From a bacterium (GTDB lineage Bacteria; UBA8248; JACPRG01; G963555815), in NCBI GenBank assembly GCA_965218795.1, contig OZ244653.1:4832001-4896000 (forward strand): a stretch of DNA of 64,000 nucleotides. The letters are read 5' to 3'. Made by a program: the position numbers and the translations under genes. This document shows positions 10,451 through 37,182 of the stretch, in pieces. Under the pieces are notes generated by a model, which was not told the DNA's origin, made no database searches, and worked only from the letters and a program-made list of their open reading frames with translations. Position 1 is the stretch's first letter. Every line of letters begins with the position of its first letter.

Positions 10451-10900
10451 TTACATGGTCCCCTTTCCCTTCTTATACGGATCCTTGGTATTTCCCGGCG
10501 CTTAAGTCCCGGATGTGCTGCATCACCGCGTCCTTATCACGCCCACACCGGCCTTGATCATCGCCTTGGCCGATCCCTTGCCCTTGGCGACGTCCCACCA
10601 GGAATTGACGAAGACCTGTGTCACCTGGACACAAGGATTCACGGTCTTGGCCGCTTTTTCATAAGCGTCCATCGAGCCCTCAATGACCGGGAAGGGAAAG
10701 GCGCCGATGGTGTCGACCCTGTTGGTCTTGGTGATTAAGCCCGCCATGACGCCGGCATTCCAACCCTGATCATTGATCGGGCCGGGCAGGACCAGCATGA
10801 TCTTGTCTTTCTTGTCGGCCGCTGTCGAAGTTGCGGGCTACGTCATGACCGAAGCCATGACCATGGCAGCCAGTAAGCCGATTATCCGAAACGGCTTCAT
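10451..10900 (-). pseudogene. Internally deleted paralog of the adjacent BMP substrate-binding protein
   Basis: Signal peptide with premature TAG, then PGPINDQGWNA joined to GVMAGL (long deletion relative to 11238..12230), then a second deletion before the C-terminal HIRDLSAGKY..PYKKGKGTM. Confidence 0.85.
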
Positions 10901-11237: not shown

Positions 11238-12230
11238 TTACTTCGTTCCCTTCCCGGGCTTGTACGGGTTTTTGTACTTGCCGGCGCTCAGGTCGGCAAT
11301 ATGCCGCTTGACCGCCGCCTTCACCTTCTCAGGCGTGCCCGGGTCATACTTTCCGAGACCGAAGAATTTCTCTTTCCATCCATAGGTCTTGACCTGCGGA
11401 TTCAGTTTCCCTTTGACGTAATCGCTCATGATCGCGGTAAAGAATCTGGGCGTGTAGTAAAGAACGCTCCCAACGACCGTCCCGGGCGCGAGGGAGTGCT
11501 GGTCGGAGATAAATCCGACGGCTTTCACTCCAGCCTCGCGGGCAGCCTGGATGGAGCCGATCCCGACTTGATTGGCAGTCGTCATAATCACGTCCACACC
11601 GGCCTCGATCATCGCCTTCGCCGATTCCTTGCCCTTGGCGACGTCGGACCAGGAGTTGACAAACACCTGTGTCACCTTGACACGAGGATTCACGGTTTTT
11701 GCGCCCTTTTCGAAACCGTCCATCGATCCTTCGATCACCGGGAAGGGAAATCCGCCGATCGTGCCGATCTTATTGCTCTTGGTGCTCAATCCCGCCATGA
11801 CGCCGGCGATCCAGCCGGCTTCCCATTCGCGGAACCCGACCCCCCCAAGGTTTGGCTCGGCCGACTTGATGCCGTTGATGATCCAATACTTGGTCTTGGG
11901 AAACTTCAGAGCGACTTTGGCTGCATAGTCGTTGTACTGGGTCCCATGCGCGATGACCAATTGGTAGCCCTTGGAGCCCAAATCCGTCATGGTGGATTCC
12001 GCATTGGCCGTCTCGATGTTCTCGATGTATTTCATCGTGACGCCAAGGTTCTTTTTGACCTGAAGGAGCCCCTTGTACGCGGTTGCGTTCCAGCTTTGAT
12101 CATTGATGGGACCTGGAAGGACGAGCATGATCTTGTCGCCCTTGCCGGCTGCCGCTACGGTGGAAGGACATGCCCACGCGAGCGACAGGACGAGAACGAA
12201 GAGTACTCCGAGCAGCCGAATTGGTTTCAT
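11238..12230 (-). CDS. BMP-family ABC substrate-binding protein (nucleoside/purine type)
   Basis: Signal peptide, PGPINDQSWN, VNSWSDVAKGKE. Confidence 0.9.
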   Translation of the reverse strand: MKPIRLLGVLFVLVLSLAWACPSTVAAAGKGDKIMLVLPGPINDQSWNATAYKGLLQVKKNLGVTMKYIENIETANAESTMTDLGSKGYQLVIAHGTQYNDYAAKVALKFPKTKYWIINGIKSAEPNLGGVGFREWEAGWIAGVMAGLSTKSNKIGTIGGFPFPVIEGSMDGFEKGAKTVNPRVKVTQVFVNSWSDVAKGKESAKAMIEAGVDVIMTTANQVGIGSIQAAREAGVKAVGFISDQHSLAPGTVVGSVLYYTPRFFTAIMSDYVKGKLNPQVKTYGWKEKFFGLGKYDPGTPEKVKAAVKRHIADLSAGKYKNPYKPGKGTK

Positions 12231-12418
12231 GCGCCGTCCCTCCGGTATGAATTTGTTGGTGGCGGTTCCCCATGAAGCGGTGAATCCTTCAGGGGCTCAC
12301 GCTTGAGGCATCGGTGAGGATGCTTTTCGGGAATTGCGCCGAATCTTATTTCAAGGCCAAAAAACTGTCAAGAAGATTAAAGAGATCATGACGGCTGTGA
12401 AAAGTATCGCTCCTGAAC

Positions 12419-13366
12419 CTAGCTCCCGCGTCTGTAAGGAAGACCGAGCGCCTTGGGGTACTCGGTTTTTCCGACGAGTCCGGCCAGCGCGATAATCGTG
12501 AGAACGTAGGGGAGCATGAACAGGAATTCGTAGGGGACGTCGAAACCTCTGGCCTGAAGGCGCAGAGCGATGGCGTCGGCCGTCCCGAAAATGATGGAAG
12601 CGCCCAATACGCCGAAGGGGTTCCACCTGCCGAAAATAACGGCTGCCAACGCAATGAATCCCCGCCCGGCCGTCATATTGTCCGCGAAAAAGTTCAACTG
12701 GCCGATGGAGAGGAAGCAGCCCCCCACGCCCGCCAAAAGCCCCCCAATGGCGGTGCAGAGATAGCGAATCCGTGTGACGCTGATCCCCACGGTATCCGCT
12801 GCTTTCGGATGTTCTCCCACCGTCCGGATCTTCAACCCCACAGGTGTCTTCATCAGGATGAACCATGTCAAGGGCACCAGAATCAGCGCAATATAGACCA
12901 GAGCGCTTTGCTGAAAGACGACTGGGCCCAGGATGGGGATCTCCGACAATCCCGGGACCTTTATCGGTTTGAAGCTCTTGACCGTGACCGGGAGAATCGT
13001 GATGCCGAACACGCCCCTGAAGATAAACGTTGAGAGGCCCAGGGCGAGAATATTGATCGCGACGCCGCTGACAATCTGATCCGCACGCAGTGTGATCGTT
13101 ACATAGGCGTGAATCAGACTCATCAGGATACCTGCAATCATCCCCAGGAGGAGCCCCGCCCAAGGGCTCCCGGTGAACTTGGAACCCAGGACGCCTGCGA
13201 GCGCGCCGATGAGCATCATCCCCTCCACGCCGATGTTGAGCACTCCTGAACGCTCGGCGAACACCTCTCCGAGGGCGGCGAGCAGGATCGGTGTTCCCAG
13301 GCGAAGCCCCGCTGTGAGGAGGGCGATCAGGAATGTCACGGTGAATAACTCGGCGACCTGGCTCAT
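12419..13366 (-). CDS. Nucleoside-type ABC permease (NupC/YufQ-like)
   Basis: ERSGVLNIGVEG, GRGFIALAAVIFGRW. Confidence 0.92.
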   Translation of the reverse strand: MSQVAELFTVTFLIALLTAGLRLGTPILLAALGEVFAERSGVLNIGVEGMMLIGALAGVLGSKFTGSPWAGLLLGMIAGILMSLIHAYVTITLRADQIVSGVAINILALGLSTFIFRGVFGITILPVTVKSFKPIKVPGLSEIPILGPVVFQQSALVYIALILVPLTWFILMKTPVGLKIRTVGEHPKAADTVGISVTRIRYLCTAIGGLLAGVGGCFLSIGQLNFFADNMTAGRGFIALAAVIFGRWNPFGVLGASIIFGTADAIALRLQARGFDVPYEFLFMLPYVLTIIALAGLVGKTEYPKALGLPYRRGS

Positions 13367-14451
13367 GATGCGCTCTCAGAACTGCGGAGCCTTCTTGCGA
13401 GGAGGACGTTCAGGACCTCCGAGCCCAATACGAAGAGCACCACAAGTCCCTGGAGGATGTAAATCATCGCAACGGGGACCCCTGCGTTGCGCTGGACCGT
13501 GATCGCCCCCACTCGGAGCGCCCCGAAGAACAGAGCCGCGATCACGACCCCGGCGGGGTGTGTCCTGCCCAGCAGGGCGACGGCAATGGCATCGTAGCCG
13601 TAGCCGGTGGTGATTTTGTCCAGGAGTCGGTGGTGAACCCCGTTCACTTCGCCAAAGCCGGCAATCCCCGCCAACGCTCCGCTGATCGCCATGGCGAGGA
13701 AGAAGCTCCGTCCCACGTGGATTCCCGCATACTCGGCGGCTTCCCTGTTCGCGCCGACCGTGCGGAGGCGATATCCCAATGTTGTGTGGGCGATGAGGTA
13801 GTAGACGACCACGGCAGCCGCCAGGGCGACAAAGAGCCCGATGTGGAGTCGGGTATCGGCCACGAGGTTCGGCAGCCAGGAAATTTCGGGAAACGTGTCG
13901 GTCTTGGGATAGAAACCCGATTTTTCCCGCATGGGAACGTTCACCATGTACCGGACCAGGTTCAACGCGACGTAGTTGAGCATGATGGTGACGATGATCT
14001 CATTCACATCGAGGCGCGCCCGCAGCCATCCGGGGATGCCGCCCCAGATTCCACCCGCCACCATTCCCGCAATTCCGGCCAACAGGATCAAAAGGAAGGG
14101 GGGCAATCCCTGGACGTACAGGCTCACCGCCGCGGCGGCCAGCGAGCCCACGAGAATTTGCCCCTCCGCACCGATGTTGAACAAGCCCGCCTTAAAGGCA
14201 AAGGCGATCCCCAGTCCGGCGAGGAGAAGGGGAGTTGCCTTGACCAGGGTTTCGGTAATGCCGAAGACCGTCCCCACTGAGCCCTCGAACAGGTAACCGT
14301 AAGCGACGAGCGGGTCTTTCCCGATGGCGAGCAGGAGGAAGGCCTCCACGATGAGTGCGCCGATGATGGCCACTATCGGCCCGCTCACTCCAATCAGGGA
14401 GCGGATTCCGCTTTCGCGAAGGCGTTTTTGGATTTCCGCGGCTGTCGTCAT
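13363..14451 (-). CDS. Nucleoside-type ABC permease (NupB/YufP-like)
   Basis: FNIGAEGQ, GYGYDAIAVALLG. Confidence 0.92.
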   Translation of the reverse strand: MTTAAEIQKRLRESGIRSLIGVSGPIVAIIGALIVEAFLLLAIGKDPLVAYGYLFEGSVGTVFGITETLVKATPLLLAGLGIAFAFKAGLFNIGAEGQILVGSLAAAAVSLYVQGLPPFLLILLAGIAGMVAGGIWGGIPGWLRARLDVNEIIVTIMLNYVALNLVRYMVNVPMREKSGFYPKTDTFPEISWLPNLVADTRLHIGLFVALAAAVVVYYLIAHTTLGYRLRTVGANREAAEYAGIHVGRSFFLAMAISGALAGIAGFGEVNGVHHRLLDKITTGYGYDAIAVALLGRTHPAGVVIAALFFGALRVGAITVQRNAGVPVAMIYILQGLVVLFVLGSEVLNVLLARRLRSSESAS

Positions 14452-15968
14452 CGAACACCGCCCATCAAGAGACCAATCTGGTCGATATCCACCTGTCCGG
14501 AATCCATGATGTCCATGAACTCCCCTTCGAAGATGACGGCGATCCGATCCGCCAGCGTGAAAACTTCTGTGAGTTCGGTGGAAACGAGAAGGACCGCCAC
14601 GCCCCTGTCCCGCTCTTCAATCAGTCTTCGGTACACATATTCAATGGCGCCTACATCAAGACCCCGTGTGGGCTGGGCCGCAATCAGCAGGCGCGGTTCT
14701 CGGGAAAGCTCTCGTCCGAGAACCAGTTTTTGTTGATTTCCACCCGAGAGAGAGCCTGCCTGAATGTGGATACCAGGGGCTCTGACGTCATAGCCGACGA
14801 GGATTCGTTCGGCGAAATCTCGAATCTCTCCATGGTTGAGACGCCCGCCGCTGGAAAATGGGGGGCTGCCGTGGACCTGCAGGGCGGCATTTTCCGCCAG
14901 GCTCTGGCTGAGAACCAGGCCGCGACGATGGCGGTCCTCCGGGATGTGCGAGATGCCTCTGCGGTAGCGCTCGCCTGTTGATTTCGAGCTGATGTCCTCG
15001 CCCATGAGGCGCACCCGACCGGCTCTGATGGGGCGAAGCCCCGCGAGGGCTTCCACCAGCTCTGCCTGCCCGTTTCCGTCGACCCCCACAACCCCGAAAA
15101 TTTCGCCCGCCGGGATATCGAAACTCAAGCCCTTCACGGCGGAAAGCCCGCGGTCGTCTTCGACGCTCAACCCCTCGACCTCGAGGACCCGTTCTCCTGT
15201 CAATGCGGCTTCTTTCTCGACGCTCAATATGACGTCCCGTCCGACCATCATCCGGGCGAGCGCTCTTTCGTCGGTCTCTGAGGTTTCGACGGTCTGAATC
15301 TTTCGGCCGTCCCGGAGGACGGTCACGCGATCGCTGACAGCGACAACTTCATTGAGTTTGTGTGTGATGAAGATAACGGATTTTCCCTCTTGCGTGAGAC
15401 GGCGAATCATCCCGAAGAGGTCTTCGACTTCACCCGGTGTGAGGACGGAGCTGGGCTCGTCCAGGATCAGGAGGTCGGCCCCCCGGTACAAGGCCTTGAG
15501 GATCTCGACCCGCTGTTGTTCCCCCACCGAGAGCTCCCAGACATAAGCTTTTGGATCGACCTGCAGGCCGAAGCGGTCACCGAGTTCCCGGATCTCCTTT
15601 TCCGCGCGACCCGTCTCCAGGACAAAGCGCCCCGCCGTTTCCATTCCCATGACAACGTTCTCGATGACAGTATGAGCGGGCACCAGCATGAAATGCTGAT
15701 GGACCATGCCGATCCCGTGAGAAATGGCCTGACGGGGGGAACCGATCCGGACAGGCCGACCGCGCAGGAATATTTCACCTTCGTCCGGGTGAATCAGCCC
15801 ATACAGGATGTTCATCAAAGTGGATTTTCCGGCGCCGTTCTCGCCGAGAAGGGCATGGATCTCTCCGGGCTCCACCGTGAGGTCTACGTGATCGTTGGCG
15901 AGAACACCCGGGAAATTCTTGGTGATCCCCCGCATTTCCAAGGTCGATGTGGATGGATGCGTATCCAT
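14448..15968 (-). CDS. Nucleoside/sugar ABC ATPase with two ABC domains
   Basis: GENGAGKST, LSVGEQQRVE, LSGGNQQK. Confidence 0.95.
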   Translation of the reverse strand: MDTHPSTSTLEMRGITKNFPGVLANDHVDLTVEPGEIHALLGENGAGKSTLMNILYGLIHPDEGEIFLRGRPVRIGSPRQAISHGIGMVHQHFMLVPAHTVIENVVMGMETAGRFVLETGRAEKEIRELGDRFGLQVDPKAYVWELSVGEQQRVEILKALYRGADLLILDEPSSVLTPGEVEDLFGMIRRLTQEGKSVIFITHKLNEVVAVSDRVTVLRDGRKIQTVETSETDERALARMMVGRDVILSVEKEAALTGERVLEVEGLSVEDDRGLSAVKGLSFDIPAGEIFGVVGVDGNGQAELVEALAGLRPIRAGRVRLMGEDISSKSTGERYRRGISHIPEDRHRRGLVLSQSLAENAALQVHGSPPFSSGGRLNHGEIRDFAERILVGYDVRAPGIHIQAGSLSGGNQQKLVLGRELSREPRLLIAAQPTRGLDVGAIEYVYRRLIEERDRGVAVLLVSTELTEVFTLADRIAVIFEGEFMDIMDSGQVDIDQIGLLMGGVR

Positions 15969-16166
15969 GTCTCGGTCATCACTTCGCAGGGTTAGTTTGC
16001 CGGTTCAGGGAGAATCCATCCTTATATACCATAAGAATCACGGGTCGCTTCCAGTCGATATTTGGATCCATGCGATTGGGAGAAGTGGGGATTGGCGCCT
16101 TTGCAGATCCGGGCGCCCCCGAATGTTCCCCGTTCAGAATGGTCTTGGGTCAGGAGCCGCAATTCC

Positions 16167-16195
16167 TTGACACGATTTTTTTTCTGACTGAGAAT
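16167..16195 (+). promoter_or_regulatory. Putative sigma70 promoter of the Mo-enzyme operon
   Basis: TTGACA-17 bp-GAGAAT in an AT-richer divergent spacer. Confidence 0.45.
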
Positions 16196-16361
16196 TCAAT
16201 CAAGAGCAATCCGGTCAACCAATGGCGGGTTGGCGTTTCCAGTTCGCCCCGGATGATTCAAAGCCGGCTTCTGGATGCAGCCGCGTTGAAATTCGAGTCG
16301 GACGGTATGCCCAGCCGGCGGGACAAGCCATGAGATATCGATTCCTCCATTCGGGAGTGAG

Positions 16362-18959
16362 TTGATGGTCGGTACACTGGACGCTGAAAAAAAGACTGAG
16401 CTGGCGAAGTCCGACGAAGGCTGGGTCCGCTCCGCGTGCATCATCTGCCTGAACCGGTGCGGCATATTGGCGCATCGGACGGCCGACGGGTATGTCGACA
16501 AGATCGTCGGCGATCCGGACAACCCCCACAATCAAGGGAAGACGTGCGCCAAGGGCAACTCGGGGATGGAAGGAATCTCCCCCGAAATCCGGGTGACGAC
16601 GCCCATGCGCCGGACCCATCCGGACAAGGGCATCGGGGTCGATCCGAAGTTTACGCCGATTTCCTGGGATGAAGCCTTGGATGAGATTGCCAAGCGCCTC
16701 AAGGAGGTGCGCGACGATGATCCGCTCAGGCTTCTTTTCTCGACTTTCGACGCCTTCCAGTTGCGCGGCGCTTTCCTTCCCGCTTTCATCAATGGATTCG
16801 GAGCCCCGGGGTACAGTACTTGGTCCGCCCAGATCTTCTGCGGGAATAACGTCCATGGGATTCATTACATGGCGCAGAACGCCTTCGAGGCGATCCCCGA
16901 CGCAGACCACGCCGAATACATCCTCCACTTCGGATCGCAGTTCGGATCGGTTGTTCATTACGACACAATGAGAAGCACGCGGGAGCTCGCAGGGAGGCGG
17001 CCGGGAAAGCTGAAGCAGGTCGTGATCGATCCGATTTGCAGTGCCGCCGCTTCGCGAGCGGAGGAATGGGTGCCCATCCGGCCGGGGACGGACGCCGCCC
17101 TGATCCTGGGTATCGTAGACCAGATGATCAACCACAATGGCCACTGCGACAGGCAGTTTCTTCGACAATTCACGAATGCTCCCTATCTTATCGGCGACGA
17201 TGAGCACTATGTGCGGGACCCCGAGACCGATAAGCCCCTGGTTTGGGATGCTTCCTCGCAGTCGGCCAAACCGTTCAACGCCAATGTCGGCGAATTCGCC
17301 CTGGAGGGTGCCTACGAAGTCAACGGGAAGTCCGTTCGAACCGCGTTTCAGGCCCTCAAAGATCACGTTGGCCGCTATACCCCGGAGTACGTGGAAGAGA
17401 TCACGACCGTGCCGAAGGATACAGTGGTCCGCCTGGCCCGGGAGTTCGGGGAAGCCGCCAGGATCGGCGAGACCCTTGAAATCGACGGCGTCGAGCTCCC
17501 CTTCCGCCCCGCCACGGTGACTTGGTATCGCGGTCTCTCGGCCCACAAGCACTGCTTTCTTTCGGGACTCGCCATCAACCTCCTCCCGACGTTGATCGGA
17601 GGGATGGACGTGCCGGGCGGGTTGCTGGGCGATCCGTATGCCCTCATGGGCAAGGCGGCTTTTGGCCGAAAGTATCAATGCGCGGAAAGTCCGGACGGCC
17701 TCATTGTCCAGGGGATGATTGGAGGCGGCCGCGTCGGGGGCTGCTACCCGCCTCGCAAGGTCCGCGCGCCCATGACGCCGGAGATGTTCGAGCTGATTCC
17801 CTGCGGTCCCTACGGCGCGATCTTTTACCTGCTGACGTCCGAATTCGAGGAGAAGTACAATCCGCCCCCGTTCCCCAGGATGCTCATGCATTACCACTCC
17901 AACCTGGTCAAGACCTCGGGACCTCCGGAGGTGATGGAGCGGTTCATGAAGCGGATCCCATTCGTGGTCTCGATCGTCCGCCGGATGGAGGAAACAGCAG
18001 AATTTGCGGACATTGTCCTCCCGGATCTCCACCACCTGGAACGTCTGGTTCCCTTCGTTTTTCAGCATTACGGGGCCGGAGAGGGGGATCTGACGACTTA
18101 TGGCGCGAAGCCGGTCGTCCACCCGCCGTTCGACCATCCGTTCGAGCCGGAGTACGTGGACGTTATGCAGATCATGCTGGAGCTGGCGAAGCGCGCTGGA
18201 TTCCTCGGCGATTTCTATGAGGCCATTAATACGATTGCGGGCCTGAAGGACGGACAAGAGCTGGACCTCCAGCGGGAATACACCTACCCGGAAATTGTCG
18301 ACCGGCTGCTGAAGAATGAGCTGGGCCCGGAGAAGGGCCTCGACTGGTTCCTGAAAGACGGCCTCTGGACGGATCAAAAGTCCGTCGAAGAGAAGTACCC
18401 GCGTCCCTTCGTTACGGCTCGAACCCACCTCTACTATGAATTCATGAAACGGGCGGGAGAAGACGTGAAAAACGTCACCGAACAGTGCGGCATTCCCTGG
18501 GATACCCAGGATTACCAGACCCTGCCCGACTGGAAGCCGGGACCCGCCTACAAGCGGGAGCCCCCTTACAATCTGTATGTCATCAACATGAAGGTCCCGA
18601 ACCACGCCCTGTCGCACACGCATAAGAACCCGATGCTGCTTTCGCTGTCGGCGAGACATGACGATCTTCGGACGGTTTGGATCAACTCCAAAACCGCGGC
18701 TGAGTGCAGGATTGAGGATGGCGATTCGGTGATCATCGAGACGTTCGAGAAGAGGCGGCAGACGGCAGTGGCCCGGGTGACCGAGCTCGTTCATCCCGAA
18801 GTGCTGGCCACGCAGGGTTGCGGAGGCGGATGGGTGGACGCGACGACCCGGCAGGAGGTGAACTTCAACGCCCTGCTGGCCATCGATGAAGACCATATCG
18901 ATTTTGTGAGCGGCGCGCTCGATTGCGCCATCTCCGCCCGCGTCATCAAGGCCGCATAG
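16362..18959 (+). CDS. DMSO-reductase-family (Mo-bisPGD) oxidoreductase catalytic subunit, PadB-like
   Basis: CIICLNRC...CAKG FS0 motif, RTHPDKGIGVDP..ISWDEALDEIA, IRPGTDAAL, ADIVLP; no twin-arginine signal. Confidence 0.92.
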   Translation: MMVGTLDAEKKTELAKSDEGWVRSACIICLNRCGILAHRTADGYVDKIVGDPDNPHNQGKTCAKGNSGMEGISPEIRVTTPMRRTHPDKGIGVDPKFTPISWDEALDEIAKRLKEVRDDDPLRLLFSTFDAFQLRGAFLPAFINGFGAPGYSTWSAQIFCGNNVHGIHYMAQNAFEAIPDADHAEYILHFGSQFGSVVHYDTMRSTRELAGRRPGKLKQVVIDPICSAAASRAEEWVPIRPGTDAALILGIVDQMINHNGHCDRQFLRQFTNAPYLIGDDEHYVRDPETDKPLVWDASSQSAKPFNANVGEFALEGAYEVNGKSVRTAFQALKDHVGRYTPEYVEEITTVPKDTVVRLAREFGEAARIGETLEIDGVELPFRPATVTWYRGLSAHKHCFLSGLAINLLPTLIGGMDVPGGLLGDPYALMGKAAFGRKYQCAESPDGLIVQGMIGGGRVGGCYPPRKVRAPMTPEMFELIPCGPYGAIFYLLTSEFEEKYNPPPFPRMLMHYHSNLVKTSGPPEVMERFMKRIPFVVSIVRRMEETAEFADIVLPDLHHLERLVPFVFQHYGAGEGDLTTYGAKPVVHPPFDHPFEPEYVDVMQIMLELAKRAGFLGDFYEAINTIAGLKDGQELDLQREYTYPEIVDRLLKNELGPEKGLDWFLKDGLWTDQKSVEEKYPRPFVTARTHLYYEFMKRAGEDVKNVTEQCGIPWDTQDYQTLPDWKPGPAYKREPPYNLYVINMKVPNHALSHTHKNPMLLSLSARHDDLRTVWINSKTAAECRIEDGDSVIIETFEKRRQTAVARVTELVHPEVLATQGCGGGWVDATTRQEVNFNALLAIDEDHIDFVSGALDCAISARVIKAA

Positions 18960-18973
18960 GGAAGGAGTTCGCG

Positions 18974-19633
18974 ATGCCTCGATGGGGAATGGTGATTGAT
19001 CTGACGAAATGCGTCGGGTGCGACGCCTGCACCGTGGCCTGCAAAGTCGAGAATCAGACGCCCGGCGACATCTGGTACGCTCCGGTCATTCAGGAAGAGG
19101 TCGGACAGTACCCCAACGCCCGCATGGTGTTTGTCCCCACGCTGTGCATGCATTGCGAAGACGCCCCGTGCGTGCGGGCCTGCCCGACGAAAGCCTTGAT
19201 GCGCCGGGACGACGGCATCGTCATGTATGAGGAAGACAAGTGTTGCGGCTCGCGCGCGTGCGTGACCGCCTGCCCGTACGACGCCGCCAAGTTTTTCGAG
19301 GGCGAGACGGGCGAAAGCCTGTTCGGCGATGAGCATACGCCGCCCACCGTGGCGGACCGCGGCGCGCGGGAGAAATACGATGCGGGGACGGTCCAAAAGT
19401 GCACGTTCTGCGCACACCGCGTGGATCACGGGATGGACCAGGGCCTCCAAGTCGGCGTCGACCGGGAAGCCACCCCCGCCTGTGTCGTTACCTGCCCGGC
19501 GGAATGCCGAATCTTTGGCGACCTGGATGATCCGGCAAGCAACGCCAGCCGGTATCTGCAGGAGCGGAGAAGCAACGAGGTGCTGCGGCCCGACGCCCAG
19601 ACCCGACCCAAAGTCATTTATGTGGTGGATTGA
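18974..19633 (+). CDS. 4Fe-4S electron-transfer subunit (DmsB/PadC-like)
   Basis: CVGCDACTVAC, CMHCEDAPCVRACP, KCTFC, PACVVTCP. Confidence 0.95.
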   Translation: MPRWGMVIDLTKCVGCDACTVACKVENQTPGDIWYAPVIQEEVGQYPNARMVFVPTLCMHCEDAPCVRACPTKALMRRDDGIVMYEEDKCCGSRACVTACPYDAAKFFEGETGESLFGDEHTPPTVADRGAREKYDAGTVQKCTFCAHRVDHGMDQGLQVGVDREATPACVVTCPAECRIFGDLDDPASNASRYLQERRSNEVLRPDAQTRPKVIYVVD

Positions 19634-20616
19634 GTGATGGCTTCTGCTGCGCAGCCGGGCGCGATAGTCGCATGACGGTTGGCTCCCCGCACGGGGATTA
19701 CGTGGGGGAATGGAGGATGCGCCCCCGTGTCCAGCGTGTCTGGGACGTTCCCCATGCGAGCTGGTTCACGCTGATGGGGATTGGAGGCGGTCTCTTCGTG
19801 ATCTCCCGCCTGATGGGGATCTCGCATGACCTGGGCCTTTGGTTCGGTCTTCCCGCAGTGGAAATCGTGAGCTTCCTGGCCATTGGCGTGGGTGGGTTGA
19901 TCCTCCTGGCCGACCTGGGAAAACCCTTCCGCTTTCTGCGGGCACTGCTGAATGTGCGCACCTCATGGATATCCCGCGGAGCGGTGGCCGATTTTGTTTT
20001 CCTCGTGCTCGCCGCCTTGCTGATCCTTCCCAATTTGAAATTCGGGGCGGCAATGCCTTTTTCGGCGCTGCCCTGGAAGTCCGAGGCTGTCTCCGGGTTC
20101 GGGCGGTTTTTGGAATTCGTGTCCATCCTTGCCGCGATCATCGTGATGTATTATGCGGGGGCCGTCCTTTCCGACCCGAAATCCATCCCCTATTGGAATT
20201 CCCCGCTGGTCCCGACGCAGTTTGTCCTGTCCTCGGCCGTCATGTCGACGGGGATTCTCTTGATGTTCTACCTGGCGGCTGGAAAGCCCGTCTCGACGGG
20301 CTTGATCGTGACGCAGGCCATCTTCGTCGGATTGCTTCTGGCGGCGCTGGTTTGGCACCTCTCCACACGGAGAGAGAATCCCGGAAAGGCGGAGAGCGTA
20401 AAGCTCCTGTTGCGGGGGAAGTACCGCGGCCTGTTTATCGGGGTCGTCCTCGTCCTGGGAGCGCTGGTTCCTTTTATATCGAGTTGGGCGGCCGCCGTGA
20501 CATCGGGAGCCGCGCAGGTCGCCTGGCTGGTGATCTCCGCGATTCTGTTGTTGGTTCAGGGATATTACCTGCGGCTCCTTACGCTCCGCGTCGGCATCTA
20601 TCCTCCTCTCCGGTAA
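19630..20616 (+). CDS. NrfD/PsrC-type membrane anchor subunit
   Basis: DLGKPFRFLRA, RTSWISRG, IPYWNS; about eight TM helices; start may be ATG 19672. Confidence 0.88.
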   Translation: MSDGFCCAAGRDSRMTVGSPHGDYVGEWRMRPRVQRVWDVPHASWFTLMGIGGGLFVISRLMGISHDLGLWFGLPAVEIVSFLAIGVGGLILLADLGKPFRFLRALLNVRTSWISRGAVADFVFLVLAALLILPNLKFGAAMPFSALPWKSEAVSGFGRFLEFVSILAAIIVMYYAGAVLSDPKSIPYWNSPLVPTQFVLSSAVMSTGILLMFYLAAGKPVSTGLIVTQAIFVGLLLAALVWHLSTRRENPGKAESVKLLLRGKYRGLFIGVVLVLGALVPFISSWAAAVTSGAAQVAWLVISAILLLVQGYYLRLLTLRVGIYPPLR

Positions 20617-20626
20617 ACGGTTCCGG

Positions 20627-20926
20627 TTGAACGCGGTGGATCTCAAGATCAGCTACATGGGCCCGCTCCGGCGGGTGATGCGATGCAACGAGGAAAGTCT
20701 CCAGCTCGCGCCCCCGATTACCGTCCGGTCCATATTGGATGAATTGATCCGGGAGCACGGGGAGCATCTGAGGGACGTCTTCTACAGCACCCAAGGCTGG
20801 ATCGATTCTCGGATCCTGTTTCTGATTGACGGGCAAAGACCGGAGGCGCGGGAGGGCCTGGACACGCCGATCAGCGGAGAAGAGAAAATTCAGATTCTCA
20901 TGGGTATCCCGATGTCCGGGGGTTGA
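20627..20926 (+). CDS. MoaD/ThiS-family ubiquitin-like sulfur carrier
   Basis: ~99 aa beta-grasp pattern (GLDTPISGEEKIQIL) ending in Gly-Gly. Confidence 0.8.
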   Translation: MNAVDLKISYMGPLRRVMRCNEESLQLAPPITVRSILDELIREHGEHLRDVFYSTQGWIDSRILFLIDGQRPEAREGLDTPISGEEKIQILMGIPMSGG

Positions 20927-20954
20927 GGGTCTCCCCGGCGGAACAGGATGAGAA

Positions 20955-21455
20955 ATGCGCGATAGCGCCGTTCAACGGGTCATCGGTGGACTGAAAGAGG
21001 CCGGCGTCAGCGTGGCCTGCTACCTGCCGGATTCTTTGTTGAAAGAACTCTATCCCGCGTTGGAGCAGGATCCGGAGATTCGGACCATTCCCGTGACCAA
21101 CGAGGGCGAGGGCGCGGCGATCTGCGGAGGGATCTGGTTGTCGGGGAAGCGTTCCGTCCTCGTCATGGAGAACTCCGGCTTGCGGGCGTCGATTGAGCCC
21201 TTGGCGCGAATGGGGCTCGGCGCGGGTATCCCCGTGATCATGATCATGAGCTATCGGGGAGACCTGGGCGAGAACAACTGGTGGGCCATTCCGCACGGAC
21301 AGACCATGGAACCGCTCCTGCAAGCCATGCGAATCCCTTACCGGATCGTCAACGAGGAAAGCGGCATCGAGCAGGCCATCGTGGACGCCTACGAGTGGTC
21401 CTGTACCGCCTATTATCACTCGGCCGTGGTGCTGGGGGGGAGCGTGGTGCGGTGA
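20955..21455 (+). CDS. ThDP-dependent decarboxylase alpha subunit (ComD/phosphonopyruvate decarboxylase-like)
   Basis: LPDS, VTNEGEGAAICGG, MENSGL, MSYRGDLGE. Confidence 0.88.
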   Translation: MRDSAVQRVIGGLKEAGVSVACYLPDSLLKELYPALEQDPEIRTIPVTNEGEGAAICGGIWLSGKRSVLVMENSGLRASIEPLARMGLGAGIPVIMIMSYRGDLGENNWWAIPHGQTMEPLLQAMRIPYRIVNEESGIEQAIVDAYEWSCTAYYHSAVVLGGSVVR

Positions 21456-22057
21456 GACGTTACGACTGCATGAAGATCCTGGGCTCCAGGCTCAGGGAGG
21501 AACTGGTCATCCTGGCGCTCGGCGGGAGCGTGGATGAATGGTACAACGCCGCGCCGCATATGCGGGATGCGAGCCTCTTTCAGCAGCAGCTCGGCTGCGT
21601 GACCCCCCAGGCGTTCGGGCTCGCCGTCGGGCTGCCGCACCGGAAGATCGTCTCGCTCGATACGGACGGCGGAATGCTCTTCAACCTCGGGATCCTGGCG
21701 ACTCTGGTCAATGAGCAGCCGAAAAACCTCTTCGTCGTCGTCTGGGACAATCAATGCTATTTGTCCATCGGAGGGCCGCCCACCCACACGTCCAGGCGCG
21801 CGGATATCGCGGGGATGGCCCGCGGCACCGGAATCGAGCGCGCCTATACGGTTGACAATCTGGAGGACTTCGAGCGGCTGTGCGACGAAGGTCTTCCGGC
21901 GGACGAGCTCTATCTCATCGTCGCCAAGGTCGAGCCCTCGGTCCATTCGGAGTTGAAACGGAAGCACAGCGACGGGCAGGAGGACAAGTATATCTTCGTC
22001 CGACACGTCGAGGAGACCGAGGGCGTGGTCATCATGGGACCCAGCGAGCACAACTGA
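21452..22057 (+). CDS. ThDP-dependent decarboxylase beta subunit (ComE-like)
   Basis: GTG overlaps the alpha stop; DTDGGMLFNLG...VVWDN ThDP-binding motif variant. Confidence 0.86.
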   Translation: MRRYDCMKILGSRLREELVILALGGSVDEWYNAAPHMRDASLFQQQLGCVTPQAFGLAVGLPHRKIVSLDTDGGMLFNLGILATLVNEQPKNLFVVVWDNQCYLSIGGPPTHTSRRADIAGMARGTGIERAYTVDNLEDFERLCDEGLPADELYLIVAKVEPSVHSELKRKHSDGQEDKYIFVRHVEETEGVVIMGPSEHN

Positions 22058-22238
22058 CTGGGATTCGAGGTTCAGGTTCCTTTTCCATGGTGTGAGCCTG
22101 AAGCCGATTTCGATGGATTCCTTCCTGCTGGCGTGATTCCGGTCTATTCGAGAACCCTGTCTTCCGGGCTTGCGCCTGGATACGCACGGCTGCGCTGTCG
22201 AAGACATAAAGCGCGTTATTTCATCAGTTCAGGGTTTG

Positions 22239-22737
22239 TGTACAGCCAGGCGTCTTCCCGAACAAATGATATTTTGCAAAGGGGAAACGAGCTCCCCCGG
22301 ATGCCTGCCCTCGAATGTCTTCGTCGGGGGCAGAGGGGAGGAGCCGTGACAACGGCAGAGTAGGTGGACTCCCGCCCCCGGCGTAAGGCCAGGGGGAATG
22401 ACAGATGGGTGGGGTTGCGTGACGCTGTTTCGTCATTCCTGCCTCCTGTCGGAACCATGCAGGGGCAGGCCGCGGGAAGGACGGGTTTGGGGACGCCTCG
22501 TCAAGCGTCCTTCCCCTGGATTCCTGTTGCAGCCTGCCCTTGAATGTCTTGGTCGGGGCGGGAATGGCCGGGTTGGAGGTCGCGCGGCCCATGTTCGTCA
22601 TTCCTGCTTGCCTGCCAGCCTGTCCCCCTGGATTGCTGCAGGAGCCTGTCCTCGAAGGCTTTTATCGGGAGCGGGAATGACCGGGTTGGAGGTCACGCGG
22701 CCCATGTTCGTCATTCCTGCGAAAGCAGGAATCCAGG
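22239..22737. repeat. Cluster of palindromic GTCATTCCTGC-N-GCAGGAATCCAG repeats plus a 73-bp conserved module
   Basis: Tandem units at 22516-22606 and 22628-22737; modules shared with 25640-25875, 52300-52635 and 61662-62080. Confidence 0.85.
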
Positions 22738-22863: not shown

Positions 22864-25302
22864 TCACTTCCAGCAAACGACAGGAACCGTGAAGCGGCGC
22901 GCGCGGCTTGCCGCGCCCTCGCCTCCGATCCCTTTTCCGGGACTGGCCGTGTTGTAGTCGATGCCGTGAATGTCGAGGAAGCCGCGCACGATGGCCCCCT
23001 TGATCGCGAAGTTCACGTTTTGAGGGATGTCGCCGACCAGTAGCATCGTTTTCAGCGCGTTGAGCTTGGCCACCACGATCCCGATCACGTTGCCGCCCGC
23101 GTCGAGCAGCGGGCCGCCGCTGTTTCCGGGTTGGACGGGAGCCGTGATCTGGAGAACGCGCGGGTTGTCGCCGGGGCCGGCGAGCGCGCTGACAGCGCCG
23201 TCCGTGACGTTGAGGTCGCTCGCGAGCAGGCCGCGGAGAGGGAAGCCGGAGACCGTCACCGGCTCGCCGAGCTTCGCGCGGGTCGATCGGAACGCCGCGC
23301 CCATGCCGTCCGTCCGGCTGGTGGACAGCAGGGCGAGATCATCCGCCTCGCTCACCGCGCGAACGGCGGCGTCCCGGTCTTTCCCCTCGAAGGTGACGGT
23401 GAGCCGCGCGCAGCCGTCGATGACGTGACGGTTGGTGAGAACGTGGCCGCGCGCGTCGGCGAAGAACCCGCTGCCGCTCGCGGCTTTCTCGAGGTCTTGT
23501 CGTCGTTCGCCCTTGCCGGCGGGCGGACTGTCGGCCTTGCGCCCGGTCCCGCCCTCGATGCGGCGCAAAAGCGACGCGCTGAGTTCCTGCGCCCGTGAGA
23601 TCTGGGAGAGGGTCATGCGCCGCCGGATGCTGTCCTTGTTCGTGACGGCGGCTTCGCTTCCTTGCGCCGCGGCAAGGTTGTACCAGGCGTAGGCGCGGAC
23701 GTCATCCTCCGGCACGCCCTCGCCGTTGGCGTACATCACGCCGAGGTTGAGCTGGGCGTTGGCGTGTCCCTGCTCGGCGGCTCGTCGGTACCACTTCACC
23801 GCTTCTCGGTCATCCTCCGGCACGCCCTCGCCATTGGCGTACATCAGGCCGAGGTTGAATTGGGCGTCGGCGAACCCCTGCCCGGCGGCTCGTCGGAACC
23901 ACTTCACGGCTTCGCGGTCATCCTTCGGCACGCCCTCGCCGTTGTCGTACATATTGCCGAGGTTGAACTGGGCGTCGGCGTTCCCCTGCTCGGCTGCTTG
24001 TCGGTACCACTTCACGGCTTCGCGGTCGTCCTCCGGCACGCCCTCGCCATTGTCGTACATATTGCCGAGGTTGAACTGGGCGTCGGCGTTCCCCTGCTCG
24101 GCTGCTTGTCGGTACCACTTCACGGCTTCGCGGTCGTCCTTCGGCACGCCCACGCCTCCGTGGTACATCACGCCGAGCAAGTGCTGGGCAGAGGCGTTCC
24201 CCTGCTCGGCTGCACGTCGGTACCACTTCACGGCTTCGCGGTCGTCCTCCGGCACGCCCTTGCCTATGTGGTACATCAGGCCGAGGATGAGTTGGGCGCC
24301 GGCGTTCCCCTGCCCGGCGGCTCGTCGGTACCATTTCACTGCTTCGCGGTCGTCCTTCGGCACGCCCTCGCCGTTGTAGTACATCCCGCCGAGGTAGAGT
24401 TGGGCGCCGGCATCCCCCTGCCCGGCGGCTCGTCGGTACCACTTCACTGCTTCGCGGTCGTCCTTCGGCACGCCCCTGCCATTGGCGTACATCCCGCCGA
24501 GGGCAACCTGGGCGAGGGCGTTCCCCTGCCCGGCGGCTCGTCGGTACCACTTCACCGCTTCGCGGTCGTCCTTCGGCACGCCCCTGCCATTGGCGTACAT
24601 CGCGCCGAGGGTAGCCTGGGCGCTAGCGTGTCCCTGCCCGGCGGCCTTGCGGAACCACTTCACGGCCTCGCGGTCATCCTTCGGCACGCCCCTGCCCTTG
24701 ACGTACATCCCGCCGAGGGTAGCCTGGGCGAGGGCATCCCCCTGCCCGGCGGCTCGTCGGTACCACTTCACCGCTTCGCGGTCGTCCTTCGGCACGCCGC
24801 TGCCATTGGCGTACATCACGCCGAGGGCAACCTGGGCGAGGGCGAACCCCTTCTCGGCGGCTCGTCGATACCATTTCACCGCTTCGCGGTCATCCTTCGG
24901 CACGCCCCTGCCCTTGGCGTACATCGCGCCGAGGGTAGCCTGGGCGCTAGCGATCCCCTGCCCGGCGGCCTTGCGGAACCACTTCACGGCCTCGCGGTCA
25001 TCCTTCGGCACGCCCTCGCCGTTGGCGTACATCAGGCCGAGGATAGCCTGGGCGAGGGCGAACCCCTTCTCGGCGGCTCGGCGGAACAACTTCGCAGCGG
25101 CAGCGTCATCGCCCCGGTCTCGGTCTTCGATGCCCGCCTGCAAGTCGTCCGAACCCGCCTTCAGGCCCTCCGGCGTCCGGGTCCGGGGCGCCGCGCGGTC
25201 TTCCTCAAGGCCCCGCGTTGGCGGGGAACACGCTGTGAGTCCCAGAAACAGGACAAGGAGCGCGACAGCGCGGCGCGATGCGGAACGGAAATTCACTCTC
25301 AT
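22864..25302 (-). CDS. Lipoprotein with 13 Sel1-like repeats and a C-terminal trypsin-like serine protease
   Basis: Lipobox LTAC after ATG 25302; 36-aa repeats AQxxLGxMYxxGxGVPKDDREAVKW; triad motifs TNRHV, DLALL, GNSGGP. Confidence 0.92.
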   Translation of the reverse strand: MRVNFRSASRRAVALLVLFLGLTACSPPTRGLEEDRAAPRTRTPEGLKAGSDDLQAGIEDRDRGDDAAAAKLFRRAAEKGFALAQAILGLMYANGEGVPKDDREAVKWFRKAAGQGIASAQATLGAMYAKGRGVPKDDREAVKWYRRAAEKGFALAQVALGVMYANGSGVPKDDREAVKWYRRAAGQGDALAQATLGGMYVKGRGVPKDDREAVKWFRKAAGQGHASAQATLGAMYANGRGVPKDDREAVKWYRRAAGQGNALAQVALGGMYANGRGVPKDDREAVKWYRRAAGQGDAGAQLYLGGMYYNGEGVPKDDREAVKWYRRAAGQGNAGAQLILGLMYHIGKGVPEDDREAVKWYRRAAEQGNASAQHLLGVMYHGGVGVPKDDREAVKWYRQAAEQGNADAQFNLGNMYDNGEGVPEDDREAVKWYRQAAEQGNADAQFNLGNMYDNGEGVPKDDREAVKWFRRAAGQGFADAQFNLGLMYANGEGVPEDDREAVKWYRRAAEQGHANAQLNLGVMYANGEGVPEDDVRAYAWYNLAAAQGSEAAVTNKDSIRRRMTLSQISRAQELSASLLRRIEGGTGRKADSPPAGKGERRQDLEKAASGSGFFADARGHVLTNRHVIDGCARLTVTFEGKDRDAAVRAVSEADDLALLSTSRTDGMGAAFRSTRAKLGEPVTVSGFPLRGLLASDLNVTDGAVSALAGPGDNPRVLQITAPVQPGNSGGPLLDAGGNVIGIVVAKLNALKTMLLVGDIPQNVNFAIKGAIVRGFLDIHGIDYNTASPGKGIGGEGAASRARRFTVPVVCWK
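23660..25063 (-). repeat. 108-bp coding tandem repeat (13 Sel1 units)
   Basis: Near-identical GTGCCGAAGGACGACCGCGAAGC framework every 108 bp; boundaries approximate. Confidence 0.92.
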
Positions 25303-25639
25303 GCGGCATTCCCCGAATGGCTCCCGGCTTCGGCTCCGATGGTAGCGGAACATGCTGTTTGACGGGAACCTGAAACGCATGTTGGCCGGATTCGCCTGGT
25401 TTTGGGCAAATATATCTGCTTTCGCGGCCCGGTTCCGACCGGTTTCGTCCCGTCCGGACATCACTGCTCCCTTCACCGTCTCGTTACCCTTCGGTTCGAC
25501 CTGCCGCCGGGAGCGTCCATAACGTGTATGACCAGGCTTCTTCCCTCACAGTTTGGATAAACTCCCTGACCGTGCGATGGGACGCCTCCCCATGTTGCGG
25601 CAGCCCTGATGAGGCCGCTCGGTGTTGTAGAACTCGACG

Positions 25640-33487: not shown

Positions 33488-33527
33488 TCCCGACCTCTCT
33501 TGTTCTACGATTCCAGAATGCCGAGCG

Positions 33528-34004
33528 TCAGCGGCCGCCGGCGGACGTTTGGGCGGCGACCTCAATCGCTTCAAGAATCTTGACGTAACCCGTGCAGCGG
33601 CACAGGTTTCCCGCGATATGAGTCTTGATTTCCTCCCTGGATGGCTGCGGGTTCGCATTCAACAGCGCTTTCGCGGCGAGGATCATCCCGGGTATGCAGA
33701 ACCCGCACTGAACCGCGCCGGTCTGCATAAACGCCTCCTGAAGCGGGTCCAGTTTGCCGTCTCTCGCCAGCCCTTCAATCGTCGTCACCTCTTTCCCCAC
33801 GGCATCGAACGCGAACATGAGACAGGAACGGACCGCCGTGCCGTTCAGGAGTACGGTGCACGATCCGCACTCACCGACTTCGCATGCCTCCTTCGTTCCC
33901 GTCAGATGCAGCCGGTCCCGCAGCACCTCGATGAGGAGCTCGTTGGCCTTTGCGTCGACCACCTCACGCTCGCCGTTGATCTCCAGGTTCAGCTGAATCT
34001 GCAT
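33528..34004 (-). CDS. XDH-family 2x[2Fe-2S] subunit
   Basis: CEVGECGSC, QCGFCIPG, NLCRCTGY. Confidence 0.96.
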   Translation of the reverse strand: MQIQLNLEINGEREVVDAKANELLIEVLRDRLHLTGTKEACEVGECGSCTVLLNGTAVRSCLMFAFDAVGKEVTTIEGLARDGKLDPLQEAFMQTGAVQCGFCIPGMILAAKALLNANPQPSREEIKTHIAGNLCRCTGYVKILEAIEVAAQTSAGGR

Positions 34005-34012
34005 CGGGTGAC

Positions 34013-34900
34013 CTAAGCCTCCAGCTTCACACCGTTGGATTCCAGGGCGTTCAGCAACCCCCGCCGGACGAGGACCCGGACCATCTTGCGCCGATATTCG
34101 GCCGAGCCCCGGAGATCCGAGAGCGGAGCGGCTTCTTCAGCCGCCGCGGTCGCCGTCTCATTGATGAGTCCAGCGACCGGCCGCTGACCCCGCAGCGCCT
34201 CTTCCGCCCGGGGGCAGCGAATCGGTCTCGGGGCCGCCGCCGCCAGTCCGATTCGAACGTCTTCCACCGCTGCTCCATCTTCGCAGGCGATCGTGACCGA
34301 CGCGGAGACGACCGGTATATCCGTAGCGTTCTTTCGCAGCTTCTCATGGGCGCCGCTGCGTTCGGCAAGCTCCGGGGCGACGGTGATCCGGGTCAGGATT
34401 TCATCTTCGGCCAGCTGCGTTTCAAAGGTGTCGACGAAGAAGTCCTCCACGGCCATGACCCGCTCGCCGTCCGCGCTTTGCAGGTGGACCTGAGCGCCCG
34501 CGGCGATGAGTGCCGAGGCCATGTCGGTTGCCGGGTCGGCATGGGCGATGCTGCCGCCCACGGTCCCCATGTTGCGAATGGGCAGGGAGGCCACATATCC
34601 CGCCGCTATGGAAAGCACGGGGTAATGCTCGGCCACGACCTCGGAGTCTGCGATCCATTGATGCCGGACGAGTGCTCCCACGTCCAGGCCCTGTTCAGGT
34701 TGGAAATCAATTTGATCAATGCCCGGAATGGTTTTGATATTGATGAGAAATCGCGGCTGGATGAGATCGTACTTCATCAGGATGGCGAGGGCGATCCCGC
34801 CCGCGATAAGCTTGGCTTCTCCGGCGTGCTCCCGGAGGAGCGCGCAGGCTTCCTCGGTCGAGCCGGCTTCGATGTACTCGAACTCACGAATCCTGGCCAT
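34013..34900 (-). CDS. XDH-family FAD-binding subunit
   Basis: IAGG, IRNMGTVGGS, DLRGSAEYR. Confidence 0.94.
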   Translation of the reverse strand: MARIREFEYIEAGSTEEACALLREHAGEAKLIAGGIALAILMKYDLIQPRFLINIKTIPGIDQIDFQPEQGLDVGALVRHQWIADSEVVAEHYPVLSIAAGYVASLPIRNMGTVGGSIAHADPATDMASALIAAGAQVHLQSADGERVMAVEDFFVDTFETQLAEDEILTRITVAPELAERSGAHEKLRKNATDIPVVSASVTIACEDGAAVEDVRIGLAAAAPRPIRCPRAEEALRGQRPVAGLINETATAAAEEAAPLSDLRGSAEYRRKMVRVLVRRGLLNALESNGVKLEA

Positions 34901-35013
34901 CACGATCTCTCGGGTCAGGGTCCCTGCCGGGCCCGGTTGCCGGCGCTCCACACTCCATCCGGCCGCATTCGCTTCGATAGCGGTTTTCGCGCTCGCCCGT
35001 ATTTCCCGATGGT

Positions 35014-36510: not shown

Positions 36511-36689
36511 CCCTCCCGCGTAATCGCCTGGATTCAGAATCTCCCCCTCGACCGGCGTTCAAGCCTCGGGCGGGTCTTGAAATCCTCCCCCTGCGCCGGC
36601 AGGCAACATGAAAATAAGGATATCTTGTCTAATGGTTCGAGTGTGCATCCTAAGATGGGCTTCAATTCGATGTCAACGGAGGGCCCGGC

Positions 36690-37122: not shown

Positions 37123-37182
37123 CGTGACGTCTCCCTTCCGATGAACTGAGCCGGTCCCCCTGTCTCCTCCATCTCGTGCGGC

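Follow-up and report, generated by a model that had tools for sequence, protein, structure and literature searches.

A putative catabolic module joining a Tat-less molybdenum enzyme to a private MoaD-like protein and a split thiamine diphosphate decarboxylase

Why would a bacterium encode a molybdenum enzyme, a small protein ending in two glycines and a decarboxylase split into two halves in a single operon? The question is raised by a 64,000-nt stretch of bacterial DNA (hereafter, the window; contig OZ244653.1 of assembly GCA_965218795.1, positions 4,832,001 to 4,896,000), which comes from a genome of 5.17 Mb in a single contig. Six + strand open reading frames (ORFs) fill positions 16362-22057 of the window; the ORF list and the DNA give spacings of 11, -4, 10, 28 and -4 nt, and the genes are translationally coupled. 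We tentatively propose, at a little short of even chances, that they encode a catabolic module: an inward-facing, quinone-linked Mo dehydrogenase, a private MoaD-like protein that caps or matures it, and a split 2-oxo-acid decarboxylase that requires thiamine diphosphate (ThDP). The six genes are as follows.

16362..18959, + strand: MoA, catalytic subunit with Mo-bis(pyranopterin guanine dinucleotide) (bis-PGD), 865 aa, assigned by Pfam, NCBIfam and motif alignment
18971..19633, + strand: FeSB, four-cluster ferredoxin-type subunit without a signal peptide, 220 aa, 17 Cys
19630..20616, + strand: NrfD/PsrC-type membrane anchor, 328 aa, about eight hydrophobic segments
20627..20926, + strand: MoaD/ThiS-like beta-grasp protein, predicted partner of MoA, 99 aa, C-terminus ...SGG
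20955..21455, + strand: TPPa, N-terminal (pyrimidine-binding) half of a ThDP enzyme, ComD/RhiE-like, 166 aa
21452..22057, + strand: TPPb, C-terminal (diphosphate-binding) half of a ThDP enzyme, ComE/RhiF-like, assigned by Pfam and NCBIfam

Pfam identifies the domains of MoA (Molybdop_Fe4S4, 45.8 bits; Molybdopterin, 70.2 bits; Molydop_binding, 30.8 bits), FeSB (Fer4_11, 65.3 bits), the anchor (NrfD, 78.7 bits), TPPa (TPP_enzyme_N, 29.5 bits) and TPPb (TPP_enzyme_C, 50.2 bits). No NCBIfam match of any of the six proteins reaches its curated cut-off. The GC content at third codon positions is 0.75-0.78 across all six genes, marking each of them as coding; an 893-aa antisense ORF at 16215-18896 was rejected as a shadow frame rather than a gene. 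MoA probably starts at the conserved ATG at 16365, and its closest match in a protein search is 864 aa long. As read from the DNA, TPPb starts at a GTG that overlaps the TPPa stop as GTGA, rather than at an internal ATG.

On which side of the membrane would this enzyme work? MoA has a complete first 4Fe-4S motif (C26, C29, C33 and C62) that is invariant in the 18 sequences of our alignment. Its Cys160, taken to be the Mo ligand, aligns with the metal-ligand cysteine of ArrA and of acetylene hydratase. Upstream of its first Fe-S cysteine, MoA has no twin-arginine motif, whereas the same search pattern flagged PhsA, DmsA-family and Eggerthellaceae enzymes. FeSB starts straight at its first cluster. 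The NrfD anchor is taken to be the quinone site of the complex. To our knowledge, very few cytoplasm-facing complex iron-sulfur molybdoenzymes have been characterized, SoeABC and PadBCD being the examples considered here. Among NCBIfam models, MoA scores 181 bits with PhsA (cut-off 694), 110 bits with ArrA (cut-off 1600) and 57 bits with TtrA (cut-off 1750); it has neither the twin-arginine (Tat) export nor the family-model score over the cut-off that define members of the Psr/Phs/Ttr/Arr families.

A protein search with MoA gave 4364 matches among 8000 scored candidates. Approximately the first fifty match clusters are 62-97% identical to MoA, and identity then drops to 49% or less; some fifty clusters at 90% identity belong to the window's subclade alone, and there are hundreds of more remote relatives, whose hosts are Acidimicrobiia, Binatia, Chloroflexota, non-ammonia-oxidising Thaumarchaeota and the window's own lineage. 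Among the matches listed by the protein search and the ESM Atlas, MoA relatives bear generic names only. Relatives in the PDB are ArrA (6CZ7), a PsrA-type enzyme (2VPW), Nap and acetylene hydratase, whose alignments with MoA are mostly confined to the first ~250 residues. In species-representative genomes, 577 MoA relatives were identified among 600 matched stretches, and the best 80 were kept as loci. Seven loci came from a metagenome scan, most of them too short for synteny. One locus (L003) is the same stretch as another (L093), a contig of a same-family genome.

Three phylogenetic trees agree on the position of MoA. Two were built from 71 and 52 rows under LG+G4, and one from 36 rows under the C20 mixture model; 21 near-duplicate or long rows were dropped for the 52-row tree, and all but 36 for the C20 tree. 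Each tree is the product of a quick search, has SH-aLRT support values and is rooted on the DmsA-family row. As references, we used PhsA and the DmsA-family enzyme from annotated plasmids, a SoeA-like enzyme encoded beside xsc in Azospirillum, and PadB, which was located by context in Azoarcus sp. Aa7 (L089, 5924-8683) and in a Magnetospirillum metagenome-assembled genome (MAG; L090), directly upstream of PadI (875 and 834 bits, respectively, against an NCBIfam cut-off of 700). The window MoA groups with L001 and Acidimicrobiia (100%), and next with the Binatia locus L010 (99-100%), and this group is nested in an uncharacterized Tat-less clade that comprises 20-27 rows (98-99%). Two Eggerthellaceae enzymes and PadB join it in a wider clade (28-40 rows, 97%), in which PadB has a long branch of its own, 100% supported and placed beside L030/L077 rather than with the window's clade. 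The SoeA clade (100%) and PhsA fall outside the wider clade in all three trees. A Cys-x4-His motif at the metal ligand is common to the wider clade, PadB included, and is absent in SoeA and PhsA. Identity to the window MoA is 35% for the enzyme type of L021 (Azoarcus sp. Aa7), 28.8% for PadB, 29-32% for SoeA-like enzymes (N-terminal part only) and 23% for PhsA. In these trees, MoA is a member of a large uncharacterized, Tat-less clade.

What is the small protein encoded between the anchor and the decarboxylase? It scores 20.4 bits with ThiS (cut-off 22.5), 24.8 bits with moaD_arch and 27.3 bits with SAMP1, and all 14 aligned sequences share its G98 and G99. An iterated search found a MoaD-like gene in 19 of the 112 scanned stretches, always within 1.8 kb of the MoA gene; all 19 loci belong to the uncharacterized MoA clade. 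The same search found no such gene at PadB, at PhsA or at any of the 21 Soe-clade loci. The protein ends exactly at Gly-Gly in 14 of the 19 cases and carries 1-9 extra residues in the other five. The genome that contains the window has four MoA paralogs, at 100, 75, 72 and 43% identity, and exactly three MoaD-like genes, each beside one of them. Three of the paralogs lie outside the operon.

C1:921831-924410, 1563257-1565860 and 2390442-2392976, window genome: further MoA paralogs (L109-L111; 75, 72 and 43% identical)

Two of these three have their own MoaD-like gene, and FeSB and NrfD occur only at the 43% copy. The sole MoaE gene of the genome is at C1:3392108-3392440, beside a canonical MoaD (66 bits) and 1.4 Mb from the operon, and the MoaD-like family profile does not pick up this canonical MoaD. 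The operon's protein has the beta-grasp fold and the C-terminal Gly-Gly of a MoaD but, unlike a MoaD, is not encoded with MoaE. Judged by gene context, the MoaD-like gene goes with the Mo subunit, not with the decarboxylase.

A complex prediction for MoA and the MoaD-like protein, each supplied as an alignment, gave a score of 0.85, and the best of three controls gave 0.00. A score of 0.85 was reached by 58 of 80 solved complexes and by 2 of 110 mismatched pairs, counts that are only a rough guide because the alignments supplied were our own. At least 86% of the contacts are shared between runs, and the pLDDT of the MoaD-like protein is at least 83. On MoA, the confident interface covers residues 143-153, 156-157, 160-161, 165 and 456-468, including the putative Mo ligand Cys160, Gly161 and His165; on the MoaD-like protein, it covers residues 50-74 and the tail, residues 93-99, with the two glycines. 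The recognizable dinucleotide-binding motifs of MoA are left out of it. We infer from this model that the tail may enter the substrate funnel of MoA, and that the MoaD-like protein is most likely a dedicated partner of the catalytic subunit, serving as a maturation or capping factor. We know of no solved complex in which a MoaD-like protein sits on a bis-PGD enzyme.

The last two genes resemble the halves of known split decarboxylases. The best NCBIfam match of TPPa is the alpha subunit of sulfopyruvate decarboxylase, ComD (105.9 bits; cut-off 147.95), the ComE model gives 87.7 bits (cut-off 221.5), and the phosphonopyruvate decarboxylase model gives 64.1 and 82.1 bits for the two ThDP halves (cut-off 312.5). 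PDB entries 9U8Q/9U8R are the best structural relative of TPPa. We searched for linkage to MoA with tblastn and an iterated profile search over the collected stretches. TPPa and TPPb adjoin MoA in 10 of the 80 related loci (L002, L004, L005, L007, L008, L009, L010, L011, L018 and L053), all of which are in or next to the window's subclade, in Acidimicrobiia, one member of the Binatia and one of the Actinomycetota. The pair is present at 8 of the 11 loci with MoA at least 62% identical, and also at L010 (45%, deep-branching) and at the frameshift-ridden L053. The pair is missing from three loci at this level of identity: L001, whose 8-kb flanks are complete; L003, which has just 4.3 kb on one side; and L006, which has just 8 kb, all of it upstream. 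Six Acidimicrobiia loci have the gene order MoA-FeSB-NrfD-TPPa-TPPb. In L008, L009 and L053, the pair is upstream of MoA and divergent, and in L010 the order is MoA-MoaD-HAD hydrolase-TPPa-TPPb, without FeSB and NrfD. At L053 (8001-12565, an Actinomycetota MAG), MoA, FeSB and NrfD match in several out-of-frame pieces, and the MoaD-like gene and TPPa/TPPb look whole; the broken frames could reflect sequencing error or decay. The window genome has 11 split TPPa paralogs, three of which (L129-L131; 57-63% identity) lie in other catabolic islands. One of these, L130, is beside Bmp-type ABC transporter, UbiD, xanthine dehydrogenase (XDH) and Rieske-type genes and has no Mo-bisPGD enzyme.

A preliminary description of this locus had proposed the six-gene anatomy and a cytoplasm-facing complex. 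Both hold: the former in the ORFs, their tight spacings and their Pfam and NCBIfam families, the latter in a MoA without a Tat motif (with positive controls) and a FeSB that begins at its first cluster. The description was to be given up if MoA fell in a characterized respiratory clade and its ComDE-like linkage was not conserved. Our dimethyl sulfoxide reductase-family phylogeny and synteny place MoA outside the Soe and Phs clades, with the linkage conserved in the subclade, and so the description survives on this point. Its idea that the Gly-Gly protein is a carrier of the pathway did not find support, the MoaD-like protein belonging with the Mo subunit by its 19 loci, the paralogs, the complex prediction and the Acidimicrobiia that lack it.

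How does this arrangement compare with known systems? PadBCD is the phenylacetyl-CoA:acceptor oxidoreductase, which oxidizes a coenzyme A (CoA) ester, phenylacetyl-CoA, to phenylglyoxylate. Like the window complex, it is built of Mo, 4Fe-4S and NrfD-type anchor subunits, none of which has an export signal, and it falls in the same wider clade and has the Cys-x4-His motif at the Mo ligand. Hence, the earlier likening of MoA to PadB is sound as regards clade and motif. It fails in other respects: PadB is 28.8% identical to the window MoA over 850 residues and is on a separate long branch, and PadB, as identified by context, shows no canonical C-x2-C-x3-C...C motif for a first Fe-S cluster within its first 200 residues, whereas the window MoA, SoeA and PhsA have one. 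At such identity, the window complex is not PadBCD. Moreover, PadBCD is followed by the oxidative PadEFGHI (phenylglyoxylate:acceptor oxidoreductase), whereas the window operon continues with a MoaD-like protein and a non-oxidative split ThDP decarboxylase; PadEFGHI families were not found among the window neighbours, and no phenylacetate-CoA ligase is nearby. The 35%-identical complex of L021 was also considered as PadBCD and rejected, the true pad cluster being elsewhere in the Azoarcus sp. Aa7 genome. At L021 (8001-12267), the genes on either side of the MoABC-like complex encode two acyl-CoA dehydrogenases, a KstD-like FAD protein, a short-chain dehydrogenase/reductase and the sulfurtransferase FdhD, and the same enzyme type occurs in two Steroidobacteraceae MAGs (L020 and L026).

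SoeABC, a sulfite:quinone oxidoreductase, is likewise a cytoplasm-facing complex of Mo, Fe-S and membrane-anchor subunits with a Cys ligand. SoeA differs from MoA in being only 29-32% identical over the first ~590 residues, in its length (~970 aa versus 865), in its separate clade (100%) and in lacking Cys-x4-His; the 21 Soe-clade loci had no detectable MoaD-like partner, unlike the window operon. The ThDP pair resembles ComDE and RhiEF, which give the best family and structure matches, in being split into N- and C-terminal halves without a middle domain. It differs in scoring under every curated cut-off and in having no coenzyme M or phosphonate context. PDB 9IZ3 is the split phosphonopyruvate decarboxylase RhiEF (PMC12141560). 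For the MoaD-like protein, the closest precedent is a set of MoaD genes strictly adjacent to aldehyde:ferredoxin oxidoreductases and assigned to tungsten-cofactor synthesis (PMC1779556; Iyer, Burroughs and Aravind 2006). In both cases, an extra MoaD-type gene, distinct from the copy in the cofactor operon, is strictly beside a pterin-dependent enzyme (PMC1779556). In the window, the partner is a bis-PGD enzyme, and the prediction is of a direct complex that brings the tail to the metal site; the passages of PMC1779556 consulted state no such complex for the genes beside aldehyde:ferredoxin oxidoreductases. The recognized families of the Mo enzyme superfamily are listed in PMC10100899, a paper in which the term "phenylacetyl-CoA" does not occur. 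In our literature searches, we met no account of a bis-PGD enzyme together with either a ComDE-like pair or a MoaD-like partner.

A Bmp/PnrA-type importer is divergent from the operon, and a transporter of this type is also beside the module in L009 and L053.

11238..15968, - strand: divergent Bmp/PnrA-family ABC importer, comprising an ATPase (14448-15968), permeases (13363-14451 and 12419-13366) and a binding protein (11238-12230)
16167..16195, + strand: promoter-like site TTGACA-17-GAGAAT, by consensus match only (10 of 12), in the 394-nt divergent spacer

A 92-aa ORF (10523-10798, - strand) clusters with the Bmp binding protein encoded 440 nt away, of which it may be a duplicated fragment or remnant. 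We surveyed neighbours with Pfam for 142 proteins from 24 clade loci, using gene calls based on third-position GC (13 of 155 were dropped for a size limit). The commonest were NMT1-type binding proteins (12), their permeases (9), ABC ATPases (8) and Amidohydro_1 (8), followed by UbiD (6), luciferase-like oxidoreductases (5), XDH-type 2Fe-2S subunits (4) and TctC (4). L009 has TRZ/ATZ-type deaminases, as well as an 8-oxoguanine deaminase and a PucD xanthine dehydrogenase, both over their cut-offs. The MoA paralogs of the window genome adjoin chlorohydrolase-family and dihydropyrimidinase-like proteins, and the 75% paralog is among XDH, amidohydrolase, F420-type oxidoreductase and hydantoinase A/B genes. 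With such importers, amidohydrolases, UbiD and XDH-type neighbours, the module looks catabolic. The picture is one of a cytoplasmic Mo enzyme family that has diversified while embedded in the breakdown of small polar, often N-heterocyclic compounds, with the TPPab-linked subclade as one branch. The two L009 enzymes prompted the idea of a route through urate, and the window genome has no match to uricase or OHCU decarboxylase. This idea was set aside and is kept as a lead only: it comes from a single locus (L009), none of its steps needs a ThDP enzyme, and the window's own XDH is not PucD-like.

Taken as a catabolic module, the operon could work as follows. The divergent Bmp-type ABC system would import the substrate, probably a polar N-heterocyclic or arylacetate-like compound. 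MoA-FeSB-NrfD, cytoplasm-facing and membrane-anchored, would probably oxidize this small organic molecule once imported, taking the oxygen from water, and would pass the electrons through five Fe-S clusters to quinone. The MoaD-like protein would sit over the substrate funnel of MoA, its Gly-Gly tail extending to the Mo site, and would most likely cap the enzyme or help it to mature. Finally, TPPa/TPPb would decarboxylate a 2-oxo acid of the same pathway non-oxidatively to an aldehyde. The direction of electron flow, the order of the two enzymes and the class of substrate are ones that we infer, whereas the gene anatomy, the absence of export signals, the place of MoA in the trees and the conserved linkages are shown by the sequences.

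Several observations weigh against this proposal. No CoA ligase or transferase is conserved beside the module, though PadBCD uses a CoA ester. The nearest MoA paralogs (72-80% identical) lack FeSB and NrfD, and so quinone coupling is not fixed in the MoA family. The MoaD-like gene has 0 matches in a chromosome-level Acidimicrobiia assembly and in one further genome with MoABC-TPPab, and there are only weak matches of 23-26 bits in two other Acidimicrobiia genomes; as these Acidimicrobiia have MoABC-TPPab without a detectable MoaD-like gene, the two-enzyme module does not depend on the partner. The complex is a predicted one, modelled without cofactors. The trees contain no acetylene hydratase, ArrA, PsrA, TtrA, SreA or catechol-dehydroxylase references, and hence the MoA clade could adjoin acetylene hydratase, ArrA, PsrA, TtrA or catechol dehydroxylase. 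Lastly, the RNA-library contigs described below could stem from contaminating DNA.

Could the two enzymes act in the reverse order? TPPab would then decarboxylate a 2-oxo acid, and MoABC would oxidize the resulting aldehyde to an acid with quinone, the two together achieving an oxidative decarboxylation functionally like that of PoxB. Only the two enzymes are invariably linked, and an aldehyde dehydrogenase gene is seen in just 1 of the 11 linked loci (L009, where it adjoins TPPb). The bis-PGD superfamily is not known to have an aldehyde-oxidizing member, however, 70 of the 80 MoA-relative loci have no ThDP partner, and L009 has its separate aldehyde dehydrogenase. We consider this order unlikely, even with MoaD-type genes being otherwise known beside aldehyde:ferredoxin oxidoreductases (PMC1779556).

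Two further readings give the MoaD-like protein a chemical role. In one, which we regard as a rather improbable speculation, the operon defines an enzyme-carrier pair of a new type: the activated C-terminal glycine of a ubiquitin-like carrier is threaded into the Mo site of a bis-PGD enzyme, redox chemistry takes place on a protein thiocarboxylate or a tethered metabolite, and the ThDP decarboxylase processes the released product. The other, which is improbable, has the MoaD-like protein as a macromolecular substrate or handle, with the Mo site acting on the (thio)carboxylate of its C-terminal glycine or on a tethered metabolite. The predicted contact of the tail 93-99 with Cys160, Gly161 and His165 of MoA, the invariance of both glycines, the distinctness of the family from housekeeping MoaD and the presence in the genome of one ThiF/MoeB-type activating enzyme, not near the operon, would all fit a substrate. 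Against a substrate are the Acidimicrobiia modules without a MoaD-like gene and the 25 commonest neighbour families, which include no activating enzyme, JAMM peptidase or sulfurtransferase. A search for fused MoaD-like proteins found none, which is weak evidence, and the tail may have been placed where it is simply because the funnel is empty in a cofactor-free model.

Does the pair instead belong to an organosulfonate route, with a ComDE that makes sulfoacetaldehyde from sulfopyruvate and a Soe-like enzyme that oxidizes the released sulfite? The ComD match of TPPa and the same cytoplasm-facing, three-subunit build of SoeABC, which adjoins xsc in Azospirillum, speak for it. We nevertheless find it very unlikely, since MoA is outside the SoeA clade, both TPP halves score under the ComD/ComE cut-offs, and the best Xsc score in the window genome is 338 bits against a cut-off of 676. 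The neighbouring NMT1-type binding proteins are only weakly SsuA-like (65-79 versus 163.5 bits), and the luciferase-like enzymes are of the F420 class, not SsuD. On these grounds, a sulfonate theme was rejected, as was a phosphonate theme, the best phosphoenolpyruvate mutase score in the window genome being 131.8 against a cut-off of 319.55. The sulfo- and phosphono- 2-oxo acids suggested in the preliminary description are weakened by the absence of Xsc and phosphoenolpyruvate mutase over their family cut-offs. An ordinary Psr/Phs/Ttr/Arr-type respiratory reductase that happens to adjoin unrelated genes is hardly credible: the best NCBIfam and PDB scores of MoA do go to PhsA, ArrA and PsrA, but the former are far under their cut-offs, MoA has no Tat signal and is outside the clade of PhsA, TPPab linkage is conserved, and gene starts and stops overlap.

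If a MoaD-like protein does serve as cap, maturation factor or substrate carrier in the catabolic module that we favour, this would be a new principle for the bis-PGD enzyme superfamily, and might account as well for the MoaD genes next to tungsten aldehyde oxidoreductases, which have long been known without an explanation. The large Tat-less clade outlined by this analysis has two partners that one would not have expected: a ThDP decarboxylase split into halves, and a private MoaD-like protein whose tail is predicted to reach the metal site. Thirteen runs from several studies, some labelled sponge metagenome, contain at least half of the sampled words of the stretch. Being in catabolic islands of bacteria from samples so labelled, the module may mark an oxygen-independent breakdown route for host-derived heterocycles.

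Eighteen short contigs (156-247 nt) were placed on the operon, sixteen at 99% identity or more and two at 95-99%. They come from two metatranscriptomic runs of one study and two runs only guessed to be RNA. These RNA-library contigs fall on all six genes, two of them bridging gene junctions, and are consistent with transcription of the operon. The bins 15900-16541 and 22106-22300 have no RNA-library contig, which is not evidence of transcript ends.

Two other features of the window are of note. A second catabolic cluster (31178-42815, - strand) encodes large, small and FAD subunits of the XDH family, the large one best matching the 4-hydroxybenzoyl-CoA reductase alpha subunit (613 bits; cut-off 995), together with a UbiD-family decarboxylase over its cut-off (35014-36510), an acyl-CoA ligase (37183-38718) and a caprolactamase/oxoprolinase-like alpha/beta pair (38799-42815). 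Directly downstream of the operon (22864-25476, - strand) is the gene for a eukaryote-like repeat protein of 870 aa, with 13 Sel1 repeats and a trypsin-like peptidase domain.

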